Shown in pieces: positions 2,710-6,232 of a stretch of 53,939 nucleotides of DNA. The DNA is from a virus (Duplodnaviria > Caudoviricetes), in the IMG/VR virus record IMGVR_UViG_3300037311_000136, positions 1-53,939 of that record. One strand, 5' to 3'. The translations under genes and the position numbers were made by a program. The notes under the pieces were generated by a model that was given only the letters and a program-made list of their open reading frames with translations, searched no databases and had not been told where the DNA came from. Each line of letters starts with the position of its first letter. Within the stretch, counting starts at the first letter, position 1.

Positions 2710-5091
2710 GTGACTATACTTGTACCGGAACCGCCGCACGAGGAAGCCGACGACACGGTACTGGTCACATCCGTCATAGACAACCAGCGCGTCCTGCTCA
2801 AGCCAGTCCCCACTCCCATGCCCACCAGTGAAAGCATTATATTATTACCGCTTGATGATATGCCGGATAACGCGGATGCTTTTGAAACCAAGTATGGTTA
2901 TATTTGGGAAGACTTTGCAGCTGGCGATATTATGGCGCTCGACTTTGAAACTACTGGCGTTGAACCTGAGGCAGGAGATATTGTAACTGTTGTAGGCCTC
3001 TCCGATTCCCGTGGCGCAATTTCAATTAACGTGCGTGACAAGCCCGGTATTCTCTTGCGTTTACTGCAGCGGCTTGCGGAACACAACATTCCCATGGTAG
3101 CCCACAACTTTACATTTGATGCGGCGTTTGCAGCAAAAAGTCTTAACGCCGAACTAATTGCGCAGGCGGGCGAGAACGGCCCAGCGTTCCATGAGTGGAC
3201 GCACTTGCGATGGGAAGCCTGTACCATGTTGCTTTCTAGAATGCTGAGCAGCGAAGGCCCGCACCAGCTAAAGTATGGCCTTAAGGATTTGCAAATAGAA
3301 CTCTTGGGCTGGTCTGTACGCGGCGATGTAGAGCTGAGCGAATGGCTTATACAAAATGGATATACCAAACGCGGCGGCGGAGCCGACAAGTCTCAGATGT
3401 CTAAGGCACCATTTGATATTTTGGGGTACTACTGCGCGCTTGACGCGGCGTCAACCTATTTACTTTACACTCGAGTCATGCGGCCGGTGCTTAACAAGTT
3501 TGTTGGCGCGGATATGCAAATCCCCTACTGGATGCTTCATGGGCTCCACTGCGTTGTTATGCAACTTAACGGCGTACGAATTGACAGGCCCAAGCTTGAG
3601 TTTATTAATACCCATTATGCCAGACTTGCGGCGCAACACTTAAATGAATTTGTTACCCAGCCGGTTATCGCGGAAGCTATTGCAGTTTTTAATGCACGCA
3701 AGATTGCGGAGATTGAAAACGCGGAGCCCTCGCGAAAGTTTAAGAAAGCTTTGCCACTTGCTGCAGAACCGCCTAAGTTTCTTAAAGCACTTAAGAAAGG
3801 CGAGATGCAGGTATCTCCGCGCTGGCTAGCCTGGAAACAAAAAGAAAGCGAAATACTTCAGGCTGTTCCGGAATACTCGGCACACTGGATTAGTTGGGCG
3901 GAAAGACTAGCGGAAGCAAAAGCAACGCAACATTTTAGTGTCACGTCTTCCCTGCACATGCGCTGGCTTGCTTACGATTATCTGCAGCTGCCAATTAAAC
4001 TTACTACTGAGTCGGGCCAGCCCTCCGTTGACGCAGACGCGCTTGGGCAAATGGGGCCATTGTTTAGACCGCTACTTGCCTGGGCAGAGTACAACAAACT
4101 GGTTACTACCTACACGTCTTCGCTTCTTAGTAAGCTTACTCCTGCAGACAGACTTCACCCCCGGCTTAAGTTTCCCGGAACAAACACAGGGCGGCTTTCT
4201 GGTGCAGGCGGGATAAACGCCCAAAATCAAAGTAAAGATATTGGATACTTAGATACATGGGCAGCCAACAAAGGTATGTCAATAATTATTAGTGATTTCG
4301 CGGCATTAGAACCTGTAGTCTTAGCAGAGATAAGTAGGGATAAAAACTTGCTTAAGTTGTACGGGCCGAAAGCACTGCCTCACGATGTGTATTTATTCTT
4401 TGGGTGCTTTACTCCTATGTATAAAGATAGGCTGGCGGCCGAAGGATACACGCCCGATTTTGTAACAAAAGAAATTGTATCTGCATGCAAGAAGAAATTT
4501 AAGCAAGAAAGACAGGTACTTAAATTATGTGTTCTCTCCCTGCAGTACGGAGCGGGGTGGCGAAAAATACAAGCATCTCTTCGCCTGTCTGGGACACACC
4601 TATCGGATGACGAAGTTATTACGCTCGTGAACGCATACAAAGAAATGTTTTCTGAACGGTATGCGTATGAGCGTCAACTGCAAACTCAGCTATTTAATAA
4701 CGATAGGTGGATATTAAACGCAACTGGACGCCCCGTGTGTATTGCTGCGGATTGGGAAAAGGACTGTATTTCTAGGTGCCTTGCAGAAGGAACCTTGGTT
4801 GTTACGGATAAGGGACTACTGCCCATTGAGCAGGTAACTAAAGAGCATTTGTTATGGGATGGCATTGAGTGGGTATCACACGAGGGACTAGTAGATAATG
4901 GGCGTCGGGACACTATTGAGCTGGCAGGAGTAAAGTTGACACCAGACCACCTAGTACATACAGTACTGGGATGGAAACTGGCGCAGGAGGTTTGTAATGA
5001 GCAGGCGTGTCTCAGCAATGTCGGGACTGCAACTTGGGCACAAGTTTGGAGACTATTCGTTAGCCTCTTTAGTTCCAGAAAAACGTGGTAA
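2710..5091 (+). CDS. polA: DNA polymerase family A, N-terminal part, fused to split-intein N-half
   Basis: Exo I LDFETTG, Exo II HNFTFD, Exo III YCALDA, TGRLS, motif A SDFAALE, motif B KLCVLSLQYG; then intein start CLAEGTLV. Confidence 0.92.
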   Translation: MTILVPEPPHEEADDTVLVTSVIDNQRVLLKPVPTPMPTSESIILLPLDDMPDNADAFETKYGYIWEDFAAGDIMALDFETTGVEPEAGDIVTVVGLSDSRGAISINVRDKPGILLRLLQRLAEHNIPMVAHNFTFDAAFAAKSLNAELIAQAGENGPAFHEWTHLRWEACTMLLSRMLSSEGPHQLKYGLKDLQIELLGWSVRGDVELSEWLIQNGYTKRGGGADKSQMSKAPFDILGYYCALDAASTYLLYTRVMRPVLNKFVGADMQIPYWMLHGLHCVVMQLNGVRIDRPKLEFINTHYARLAAQHLNEFVTQPVIAEAIAVFNARKIAEIENAEPSRKFKKALPLAAEPPKFLKALKKGEMQVSPRWLAWKQKESEILQAVPEYSAHWISWAERLAEAKATQHFSVTSSLHMRWLAYDYLQLPIKLTTESGQPSVDADALGQMGPLFRPLLAWAEYNKLVTTYTSSLLSKLTPADRLHPRLKFPGTNTGRLSGAGGINAQNQSKDIGYLDTWAANKGMSIIISDFAALEPVVLAEISRDKNLLKLYGPKALPHDVYLFFGCFTPMYKDRLAAEGYTPDFVTKEIVSACKKKFKQERQVLKLCVLSLQYGAGWRKIQASLRLSGTHLSDDEVITLVNAYKEMFSERYAYERQLQTQLFNNDRWILNATGRPVCIAADWEKDCISRCLAEGTLVVTDKGLLPIEQVTKEHLLWDGIEWVSHEGLVDNGRRDTIELAGVKLTPDHLVHTVLGWKLAQEVCNEQACLSNVGTATWAQVWRLFVSLFSSRKTW
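4777..5088 (+). mobile_element. Split intein N-fragment (about 104 aa including a tail that overlaps the HNH)
   Basis: Block A CLAEGTLVVTDKG, block B LTPDH (TxxH); frame closes at TAA 5089-5091. Confidence 0.88.
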
Positions 5092-5623
5092 ACTATTATA
5101 CGTATTAGTAACGTGTGCGCACGAAACAAAGTACGTGCTTTTAGACAATCTTAAAAGAGGCGCGCAGCTAGGTTGCCTTCGCTGCTATGAGGAACGCAAT
5201 AGTATTTTTAAAACAAAATCTACGGAAGACGCATTGCTTTACAAAAGACTACACTCAATAAAAAGCAGAGTTGCTGTGAGTCCTGGTATTCCACTGAGAA
5301 TCCGTAAAGTGTATGGAGACCGAGGAATTGGGCTGCACAAAGAGTGGGAAACTAATCCCCAAAAATTCATAGACTATGTTAAGGCTTTACCTAACTATAA
5401 TATTAACTTAACTATTGACAGAATAGATAACAGCAAGGGATATGGGCCAGGAAACATTCGGTGGGCAACTATTAAACAACAGTCGGAAAACCGGAAAACC
5501 ACTCTTTGGTTTACCTATAAAGGCCAGCCGATAAATCTAGCTGATGCGATTAAGAAGTTGCCTAAACTAGGCCGAGATAAAGCAACGTCGCTTCTTAAAC
5601 AAGGAAAACAGTTGACGAGTTAG
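4997..5623 (+). CDS. Free-standing HNH homing endonuclease between the intein halves (probably extends to 5829 by frameshift)
   Basis: YGDRGI, LTIDRIDNSKGYGPGNIRWAT...QSEN HNH motif; N-terminal Cys residues; AT-richer than flanks. Confidence 0.88.
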   Translation: MSRRVSAMSGLQLGHKFGDYSLASLVPEKRGKLLYVLVTCAHETKYVLLDNLKRGAQLGCLRCYEERNSIFKTKSTEDALLYKRLHSIKSRVAVSPGIPLRIRKVYGDRGIGLHKEWETNPQKFIDYVKALPNYNINLTIDRIDNSKGYGPGNIRWATIKQQSENRKTTLWFTYKGQPINLADAIKKLPKLGRDKATSLLKQGKQLTS

Positions 5624-5689
5624 AAAAGTTAACGGATGCGGAAATAAAAAAGCTAAGACGAACCCGCGCAATTAAAGTGGAGTGGCAAA

Positions 5690-5893
5690 ATGAAACAATG
5701 GATTTTAACTTTTTTGTTAAAAACTTTACCAACTATTCTTTGGTACAAGCTGCTAAGCTACGCCGGAAGGGCGTCAGCCTTGAACGGCTTGCCCAAAGAA
5801 AAAAGCCCCCGCGTTTACGACTTAGTTAATGCAGGGCCTAGGCACAGATTTGCGGTAGTAGGCACTACGGGGCAGGCCTTTTTAGCACACAAC
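5690..5893 (+). mobile_element. Split intein C-fragment (68 aa)
   Basis: Ends His-Asn at 5888-5893, followed by Cys codon 5894-5896. Confidence 0.88.
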
Positions 5894-6232
5894 TGTGTCC
5901 AGTCAGGCGGGCATGACCTGCTTGTGATTTCTACGCAAGTTGTATCTGAGTTGCTGACAGAGGCGGGCATACCATACTGGCCGCACGTCTGGGATATGCA
6001 CGATGCGCTGATGTTTATGGTACGGGACGAGGACGTGCCGCGTGCACTTGAGTTGCTTCGTGCGCCATTCCACGATAGGTTCTATCGGATTATAAATCCG
6101 GATGGCCAAAGCCTGTGTCTTCCAAAGTGGGAGCCGGCCGCTGTCAAGACCTGGGCCGAAGACAAAGAAGAAGAACCCGGAAGTGTACAGGCGTTTCGGG
6201 ACTTGTACTTACGAAAAACGAGGAAGGCATGA
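5690..6232 (+). CDS. polA: Split-intein C-half fused to C-terminal part of DNA polymerase A
   Basis: GGAG RBS; block F VYDL...HRF; block G LAHN followed by C+1; then CVQSGGHD and motif C WDMHDALMF. Confidence 0.9.
   Translation: MKQWILTFLLKTLPTILWYKLLSYAGRASALNGLPKEKSPRVYDLVNAGPRHRFAVVGTTGQAFLAHNCVQSGGHDLLVISTQVVSELLTEAGIPYWPHVWDMHDALMFMVRDEDVPRALELLRAPFHDRFYRIINPDGQSLCLPKWEPAAVKTWAEDKEEEPGSVQAFRDLYLRKTRKA

Follow-up and report, generated by a model that had tools for sequence, protein, structure and literature searches.

The DNA stretch analyzed here is the IMG/VR virus record IMGVR_UViG_3300037311_000136 at its full length of 53,939 nt (hereafter, the window), and it originates from a tailed phage present in one freshwater-metagenome run. 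At positions 2710–6232, the gene encoding a family-A DNA polymerase (PolA) is interrupted. The sequence gives good support to the view that this locus is real and represents a natural split intein in a phage PolA gene, accompanied by a free-standing gene for an HNH-type nuclease. The N- and C-terminal halves of the intein are referred to below as IntN and IntC, and the polymerase parts adjacent to them as the N- and C-exteins. As a whole, the locus is quite probably best explained by a split-intein PolA that is assembled by trans-splicing, with the HNH cassette located inside the intein. If the halves splice, the catalytic center of an essential phage replicase comes into existence only through post-translational ligation, as motifs A and B are on one chain and motif C is on the other.

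Polymerase parts and intein halves

The locus contains three open reading frames (ORFs) on the plus strand, as found in the ORF listing (Table 1). The first-pass annotation, made from the nucleotide sequence, had described the first of them as the N-terminal part of PolA, which runs through motifs A and B to DCISR, continues as intein blocks A and B and stops at 5091; both the ORF coordinates and the Pfam search agree with this description. The ORF 1 product matched DNA_pol_A with 60.6 bits (cut-off 34.3) and the 3'–5' exonuclease family DNA_pol_A_exo1 with 25.1 bits (cut-off 23.6), and in PHROGs it matched phrog_17, DNA polymerase, at 4e-55. Its sequence reads ...EKDCISR, then CLAEGTLV...LTPDH..., and then the stop codon at 5089–5091. 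ORF 3 reads ...PRVYDLVNAGPRHRF...FLAHN and then CVQSGGHD...WDMHD, in agreement with the earlier description of a second gene in another frame, in which blocks F and G are followed by CVQSGGHD and motif C.

A search of 5.8 billion proteins revealed 14 relatives of the N-terminal part besides the window's own protein. Eight intein-free full-length relatives, namely P0002 (45% identical, 799 aa), P0003 and P0006–P0011, were aligned. The insertion was absent from all eight, and the alignment across the junction was free of gaps. The N-terminal part ends exactly at the relatives' ...KD..NR, and the C-terminal part restarts with the next residue, two residues before the invariant QS.GHD. This confirms that the junction ISR-CVQSGGHD is located at the conserved helix preceding motif C, as had been predicted. 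The N-extein (689 aa) and the C-extein (112 aa) together comprise 801 aa, which agrees with P0002.

A profile of the intein-free relatives matched the structures of the Klenow, Taq and Bst polymerases (1e-25 to 1e-34). The MHD of the window aligned with the invariant HD of the relatives and with the HDE of PDB 7r0k. Since the alignments place them so, motifs A and B are assigned to the first polypeptide and motif C to the second, and the earlier statement that catalytic motifs A and C lie on separate polypeptides is borne out. A PDB search with the C-extein alone gave no meaningful match. The tblastn search with the N-terminal part found only distant PolAs (172 records, none covering at least 80%), with approximately 22–30% identity among the matches listed.

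One intein-free relative, L005 (250–2432), carries polA as two overlapping ORFs (250..1431 and 1170..2432), with no intein or nuclease. The frame change in L005 is probably a sequencing error or a real frameshift.

All hallmarks of an intein were found in the two halves, namely Cys1, TPDH, VYDL, the terminal HN and Cys+1. Cys1 of IntN (TGC, 4777–4779) stands directly after ...ISR, and Cys is also the first residue of IntN in the loci L009 and L010, which are described below. Block B of IntN is LTPDH, in which T55, D57 and H58 are invariant in a four-sequence alignment. Blocks F and G of IntC read ...VYDLVNAGPRHRF...FLAHN and are followed by Cys+1 at 5894–5896, a pattern also seen in relatives. 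The IntN core comprises approximately residues 1–75 (to ~5001), and in the tail at 5002–5088 the frame continues across the HNH gene's 5' end.

A HMMER search among 1.84 billion representatives revealed 2457 relatives of IntN at E ≤ 1e-3, 1086 at E ≤ 1e-10 and 12 at E ≤ 1e-30, most of them within PolA-like proteins. Relatives of this intein, both contiguous and split, are common in PolA proteins from metagenomes. A local BLAST set of 151 proteins in all was formed from 150 IntN relatives plus P0018 and P0019. In this set, IntN-like and IntC-like pieces co-occur in the same protein, 109 to ~390 residues apart, and are flanked by PolA motifs; IntC matched 150-odd of the relatives. When 10 intein-bearing relatives were analyzed with Pfam, DNA_pol_A was found in 8 at E ≤ 1e-3 (in 6 above the cut-off) and in 2 it was not found. 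Mini-inteins of 109–123 aa (P0132, P0032, P0116, P0024 and P0125) were tiled by IntN residues 1 to ~75 and the last 38 residues of IntC, which indicates that the nuclease cassette sits at the canonical endonuclease insertion point. The insertion site of the window (the intein end, then C.Q[AGST]) is occupied in 45 of the 151 proteins. Other sites were a CEN..Q variant (15), a motif-B site (87), a site before ..QNLP (19) and a motif-A site (5), and many proteins contain two inteins. The intein family occupies at least four PolA sites.

In order to compare IntN with solved structures, a profile built from four IntN sequences (the window, L008, L009 and L010) was used. It matched the N piece of the Neq Pol split intein, the structure of which is solved, at 4.8e-6 and the Mtu RecA mini-inteins at ~2e-3, and all 11 PDB matches at E ≤ 1 were inteins. 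IntN with seven extein residues (111 aa) and IntC taken from 5780 with six (44 aa) were also folded as a complex. The score was 0.53, rated as weak support, and the best of three controls reached 0.00. Of 78 solved complexes, 51 passed the mark set for this score, as did 2 of 108 mismatched pairs; scores of 0.60 or less were obtained for only 5 of the 78 solved complexes and for all 4 passing mismatches. Since solved structures of split-intein complexes exist, the score may reflect likeness to them, and we take it as evidence neither for nor against association. The fold runs share at least 90% of contacts, with a partner pLDDT of 63.

Two start codons are candidates for IntC. ATG 5690, with GGAG (5679–5682) located 7 nt upstream, gives a 68-aa IntC with a 30-residue extension, and TTG 5780, with GGAAGGG (5765–5771) located 8 nt upstream, gives the 38-aa core. 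P0018 and seven other relatives begin with Met 1–8 residues ahead of the (V/T)YD(L/I) block. By this comparison, the start at TTG 5780 may resemble the relatives more closely than that at ATG 5690, and the true start of IntC is uncertain. Thus, of the ribosome-binding site and start that the first-pass annotation had assigned at 5690, the GGAG motif 7 nt before the ATG was found, and the start itself may be TTG 5780. RNA folds near the three starts were no better than those of shuffled sequences (z −0.86 for 4950–5030, +1.10 for 5650–5720 and −1.74 for 5740–5810). The hairpin at 5740–5810 (−24.5 kcal/mol; 12 of 200 shuffles as good) would pair GGAAGGG and the TTG codons at 5780 and 5789; it is non-significant and is relevant if IntC begins at 5780.

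Nuclease cassette and related loci

The HNH ORF was attributed to HNH endonuclease families of PHROGs, namely phrog_374 (4.9e-22) and phrog_3377 (4.6e-21), and its relatives found by tblastn are free-standing HNH genes (807 phage records, 98 of them covering at least 80%). The Pfam search with this ORF gave no match. A profile of five HNH proteins gave two weak matches in the PDB, with I-HmuI (E = 0.023) and PacI (E = 0.2). In the window and in the loci L007, L008, L009 and L010, the first His of the H-N-H triad ('DH.D' in I-HmuI) is replaced by Arg (DRID). The variant motif, DRID...GY.PGN.RW, is located at 5417–5470 of the window, and PacI likewise aligns with DR.D. Judging by these motifs, the nuclease is a member of a variant subfamily of the DRID type, I-HmuI/PacI-like, and 'HNH' is its PHROG label. 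The HNH proteins of the window and L008 are 38% identical.

The cassette (~4985–5829) has its own ribosome-binding site, start and stop, and its G+C content is 41.5% vs. 50.5% for the genome. The view that a free-standing HNH gene lies between the halves is supported by its own AGGAGG and ATG and by the PHROG families, and it has to be qualified in that the gene overlaps both intein ORFs and is disrupted. The overlap with the IntN ORF is 95 nt (4997–5091). The HNH ORF and the ORF at 5690 are in a common frame and are separated by four stop codons.

The HNH gene is not intact over its full length, its last DNA-binding module being in another frame. In a BLASTP search, this module (5653–5829, frame 1) matched the HNH protein of L007 with E = 3e-16 and 55% identity over 55 aa. 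The tblastn search of the window with the HNH protein of L008 gave a frame-2 piece at 5033–5614 (5.6e-39) and a frame-1 piece at 5653–5793 (1.5e-9). No match at E ≤ 1 among phages in GenBank was found for the frame-1 stretch 5599–5826, the HNH protein of Enterococcus phage EA1 reaching only E = 1.6. The change from frame 2 to frame 1 is located near GGAAAAC (~5608–5614) and is either a real lesion, with the module lost late in the homing cycle, or a single-base error. The nuclease of the window is probably truncated or decaying.

Reading the module DNA in the IntC frame gives ~37% identity to L007 vs. 55% in the HNH frame (counted from the printed ORFs). The likeness of the IntN tails in the window, L008 and P0099 is best explained as a by-product of reading a conserved HNH sequence in another frame, and this explanation is also the best one for the long extensions at the N-termini of the IntC ORFs.

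A promoter-like site, TTGACA-17-TACAGT (10/12), was found at 4936–4964, inside IntN and 33 nt before the HNH start. The counts in the region 2400–6700 were at chance level, with 5 promoter-like sites vs. 4.8 expected and 8 terminator-like sites vs. 5.6 expected, and the site is only a lead for separate transcription of the nuclease gene.

One metagenome scan revealed three independent loci with the layout of the window, namely L007, L008 and L010. In L008, a 240-aa HNH gene (+1 frame) contains the stop of the IntN ORF within its 5' end, IntC overlaps the 3' end of this gene, and the splice junction is HN/CGHD (the slash marks the junction here and below). The frame relations at both ends of the cassette are the same in the window and L008. 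L007, in which only the C side is present, contains an HNH gene and an overlapping IntC ORF with the junction SN/CVQSAGHD, which is the site of the window. L010 belongs to a different PolA clade (...YGGKLAEN/C...HN/CTQALCRD) and contains IntN, an overlapping +1-frame HNH gene and IntC. The same layout in these three loci makes an assembly artefact unlikely.

The locus L009 (4898–7666) encodes a 922-aa PolA-like ORF with an intein of the same family at the motif-B site, the frame of which is open. A 191-aa HNH gene is located in another frame (L009:6426–7001), and the middle of the intein is its low-complexity read-through. L009 (G+C 56%) is thus a contiguous counterpart of the split layout in the window.

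A comparison of L007 (1–780) with L008 (381–1190) showed near-identical HNH DNA, very similar C-exteins and strongly different IntC regions, and the splice junctions are 4 codons apart (SN/CVQSAGHD vs. HN/CGHD). This looks like a single nuclease cassette serving two inteins at neighboring sites, or like recombination bounded by the inteins. The HNH/IntC overlap in these two loci contains too few substitutions for a codon-position frame test. An intein-less allele, L003, was found in close relatives of the L007 and L008 phages.

Natural fragments of the intein were found as well. Eight proteins begin with Met and 1–8 residues followed by IntC, and five end 80–124 residues past the IntN start; in P0019 and P0099, IntC is located behind an over-extended start. 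P0099 (284 aa) begins with IntC and ends with a split IntN. This protein and P0021, P0025, P0029, P0066, P0077, P0091 and P0132 are PolA pieces with a short IntC first and further inteins inside. In some phages, PolA seems to be put together from three polypeptides by way of two split inteins that belong to one family. Scans of viral contigs for split relatives gave nothing for the C-part query or for P0099, and for P0018 they gave only the intein-free L002.

Proposed mechanism, alternative explanations and known systems

The anatomy, the homology, the exact insertion, the intact catalytic positions and the recurring layout are read from the sequences, and from them we infer expression, association, splicing and homing along the following lines. 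A class-1 intein of a large PolA-dwelling family would have invaded polA at a point two codons ahead of the conserved Gln in the helix before motif C, and the HNH cassette sits within the intein where endonucleases are usually inserted. The intein is split because the cassette is in another frame: the intein frame stops at 5089 and must restart inside the 3' end of the cassette. Two chains would be made, one with the exonuclease domain, motif A, motif B and IntN (793 aa) and the other with IntC and motif C (180 aa, or ~150 aa from 5780). IntN and IntC would associate to form one HINT domain, and Cys1 and Cys+1 would perform the standard four-step (class-1) splicing. Its product would be an 801-aa polymerase with the junction ...ISR-CVQSGGHD... 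and a Cys at this junction. An intact HNH enzyme would cleave polA alleles that lack the intein in relatives infecting the same cell, and the whole element would be copied in and spread.

Several observations weigh against this explanation. Intein models, proposed by the first-pass annotation as a check, did not recognize the intein from the single sequence: the Pfam scan gave no intein or Hint model at E ≤ 1 and TIGR01445 remained below its cut-off (E = 0.12). A significant match to solved inteins was obtained with the four-IntN profile described above. Similarly, phmmer matches of the single sequence in the PDB were only at E 0.25–1.2, though all 10 of them were inteins. The start codon of IntC is ambiguous between the two candidates, and the disruption of the HNH gene may mean that the element is heading for decay. 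In addition, the window has Ser (...CISR, 4768–4776), two residues before the splice junction, at a position where all nine intein-free relatives compared have Asn (N674 of P0002). This replacement may be an adaptation of the extein to the intein or may have a functional cost, and it could signal a compromised enzyme.

The last two observations also speak for an alternative in which the halves associate without splicing or the polymerase is dead, so that the phage uses non-covalent complementation or a host polymerase. Fractured genes that lack inteins and work by association are known, namely Aeh1 NrdA (PMC2677866) and the case in PMC3045599. Nevertheless, we consider this alternative unlikely. 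Cys1, T..H, the terminal HN and Cys+1 are all intact and agree with the family consensus, both ORFs are open over their full length, and the layout is kept in L007, L008 and L010. In addition, the break is inside the palm beside motif C, a place that would hardly accommodate ~140 additional residues of intein.

It is very improbable that the locus is really a single contiguous intein, with the HNH domain in frame, that was broken by errors of sequencing or assembly. In favor of this, three frame changes are found (1 to 2 near 5000, 2 to 1 near 5615 and 1 to 2 near 5800), and two of the three are near short runs of A or C. However, L008 and L010, which come from other metagenomes, share the frame relations, with IntN stopping in the 5' end of the HNH gene and the HNH start in the +1 frame. 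A perfect AGGAGG stands at the HNH start, no homopolymer is present at the IntN/HNH frame change, and elsewhere in the genome long ORFs remain unbroken (1810, 1468 and 1135 aa). Another assembly of the same run, a Logan contig of 53,842 nt which is permuted relative to the window, has 0 differences over 4600–6300 at a depth of 21; this identity is not independent evidence, as the run is probably the source of the window, which counts among the points against our explanation. An error is conceivable, at most, for the shift within the HNH gene near 5615.

Programmed ribosomal frameshifting or another recoding event, yielding a contiguous precursor or restoring a full-length HNH protein, is less likely still. 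A −1 slip of the Lys tRNA is conceivable at GGAAAAC (~5608–5614), where the HNH frame changes from 2 to 1, and overlap between frames is typical of recoding sites in phages. Against this, the sequence there does not fit the canonical X XXY YYZ heptamer, and a contiguous intein would need three separate shifts. No significant structure was found in 4950–5030, 5650–5720 and 5740–5810, the stretch 5608–5649 downstream of the slip site not being covered. Finally, removal of a group I or group II intron with an HNH gene at the RNA level, with coincidental intein-like motifs, is hardly credible: HNH genes are frequent in phage group I introns, including one within the gene for DNA polymerase of a T7-like cyanophage (PMC3428280), but across the whole window no match to an Rfam family attained the gathering score, the flanking sequences are genuine halves of an intein and have thousands of relatives, and the halves would remain in different frames after removal of the intron.

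Beyond the trans-spliced split-intein PolA itself, a broader view can be proposed, which we regard as slightly more doubtful than probable. The window would be a snapshot of one still-mobile system, in which a family of HNH cassettes is nested out of frame in PolA-specific inteins, chance stops determine whether an intein is contiguous or split, cassettes move between inteins at neighboring sites, and a PolA made from three pieces with two split inteins of the family requires natural orthogonality between close relatives. Over the length of the cassette, the intein frame stays open in L009, which is richer in G+C, and is closed in the window, L008 and L010. If this view is true, the loci are living intermediates for the origin of split and endonuclease-bearing inteins and provide a ready-made set of orthogonal ligation pairs.

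The intein family includes members with short C-halves (~26–38 aa), with Cys+1 and with Ser+1, and hosts that naturally carry two inteins. These traits make it a plausible source of new, possibly mutually orthogonal ligation tools. The window together with L007–L010 forms a tractable set for studying how nuclease genes enter inteins and how split inteins arise. If trans-splicing takes place, family-A polymerases join the fractured replication proteins, namely gp41/DnaB helicases, ribonucleotide reductase, Pol III alpha and archaeal PolB.

The closest known systems are the fractured genes described by Dassa, London, Stoddard, Schueler-Furman and Pietrokovski in 2009 (PMC2677866), with 26 loci in gp41, IMPDH, NrdA/NrdJ and DnaE. 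The first-pass annotation had named gp41, NrdJ and IMPDH; the paper agrees and adds DnaE and NrdA. In its model, the invading element provides an upstream stop and a downstream start. The window has the same order on one strand, with N-extein and IntN, a free-standing homing endonuclease gene, and IntC and C-extein; the upstream stop likewise comes from the 5' end of the nuclease gene and the downstream start from its 3' end, and the contigs are likewise environmental and phage-like. The 3' end of the nuclease gene overlaps the IntC ORF by 6–69 bp in 15 of the 26 loci and by 50 nt (start at 5780) or 140 nt (start at 5690) in the window. In contrast to those loci, the host gene in the window encodes a family-A polymerase ('PolA' occurs 0 times in the available text of PMC2677866), the nuclease is of the HNH type and also overlaps the IntN ORF, and the intein belongs to a different family, which is widespread in PolA-like genes. 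The nucleases in that part of the paper are GIY-YIG or Vsr-like, HNH nucleases being only predicted as able to fracture genes, and the window extends the arrangement to them.

The split intein of the Nanoarchaeum equitans PolB (NEQ068 piece, PDB 5oxw/5oxx) is the closest solved structure to IntN by sequence. According to PMC2677866, the catalytic domain of this polymerase is also formed from two genes joined by a natural split intein. Unlike the window, that case involves a family-B polymerase and an archaeal host, with no nuclease gene between the halves.

Like the window, the cyanobacterial DnaE (Pol III alpha; Npu and Ssp) combines natural split inteins, an essential replicative polymerase and Cys1/Cys+1. 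IntN of the DnaE split inteins comprises ~100 aa and IntC ~36 aa. They differ from the window in being cellular, in having two genes that are far apart and in having no nuclease gene, and no detectable sequence match to them was found in the PDB searches with the window intein.

A 2025 preprint surveying actinobacteriophages (10.1101/2025.01.02.630785) describes nucleases in a separate frame inside contiguous inteins, proposes their origin via invasion by a nuclease gene that was free-standing, and predicts that split inteins will often result. In the window, the nuclease gene is similarly nested at the intein endonuclease site in another frame, and L009 is an HNH case of this kind in a PolA-like gene. 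In the available part of the preprint, however, the out-of-frame case is endonuclease VII-like and the HNH cases are in frame, the hosts include Pol III alpha and not PolA, and the intein frame is open, unlike that of the window, which stops close.

Other replication genes in two pieces differ more. The nrdA gene of phage Aeh1, split by an HNH gene, is a two-piece phage replication gene as in the window, but without intein halves. The exo/pol split PolA of T7-like cyanophages (PMC10201439) is also in two pieces, with the split between domains and not in the palm. In both cases, the pieces are thought to associate non-covalently, unlike the splicing proposed for the window. In the available text of PMC10201439, a 2023 reclassification of PolA, this exo/pol gene split is presented as the first seen in PolAs and 'intein' occurs 0 times. 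Bacterial DNA polymerase I can carry inteins (PMC4760082). No described split intein in a family-A polymerase was found in searches of the main texts of the open-access literature, including PMC10201439, PMC6302109 and PMC4760082, while the supplements of PMC4760082 and PMC2677866 might list PolA sites or further loci; this is in line with the earlier remark that no characterized PolA case at this site was known. Thus, the arrangement is a known one, its new features are PolA as the host gene and HNH as the nuclease type, and it is not a categorically new mechanism.

Locus coordinates and genome context

The features of the locus are listed in Table 1.

Table 1. Positions of the polymerase, intein and nuclease features in the window.
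Feature	Position	Strand	Description
ORF 1, PolA N-part and IntN	2710..5091	+	793 aa; GTG start; frame 1; stop 5089–5091
ORF 2, HNH-type nuclease	4997..5623	+	208 aa; frame 2
ORF 3, IntC and PolA C-part	5690..6232	+	180 aa; frame 2
PolA N-extein	2710..4776	+	689 aa; 3'–5' exonuclease domain, motifs A and B; ends ...EKDCISR
Intein N-half	4777..5091	+	104 aa and stop; Cys1 4777–4779; TPDH at residues 55–58
Shine–Dalgarno AGGAGG of the HNH gene	4985..4990	+	6 nt 5' of ATG 4997; embedded in the IntN coding sequence
Second C-terminal DNA-binding module of the HNH gene, out of frame	5653..5829	+	frame 1; TAA 5827–5829; overlaps the IntC ORF
Intein C-half, maximal reading	5690..5893	+	68 aa; ATG 5690; ends ...FLAHN
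Conserved IntC core	5780–5893	+	last 38 codons; TTG 5780
PolA C-extein	5894..6232	+	112 aa and stop; Cys+1, VQSGGHD helix, motif C (MHD)

A blastn search with 2710–6232 revealed no DNA similarity to known phages. A 127-nt direct repeat was found at the ends of the window (1–127 and 53813–53939), which indicates a circularly closed or terminally redundant assembly and a complete genome of ~53.8 kb. The genome also encodes a portal protein, a large terminase, a helicase, a RuvC-like resolvase and a Cas4-like nuclease.

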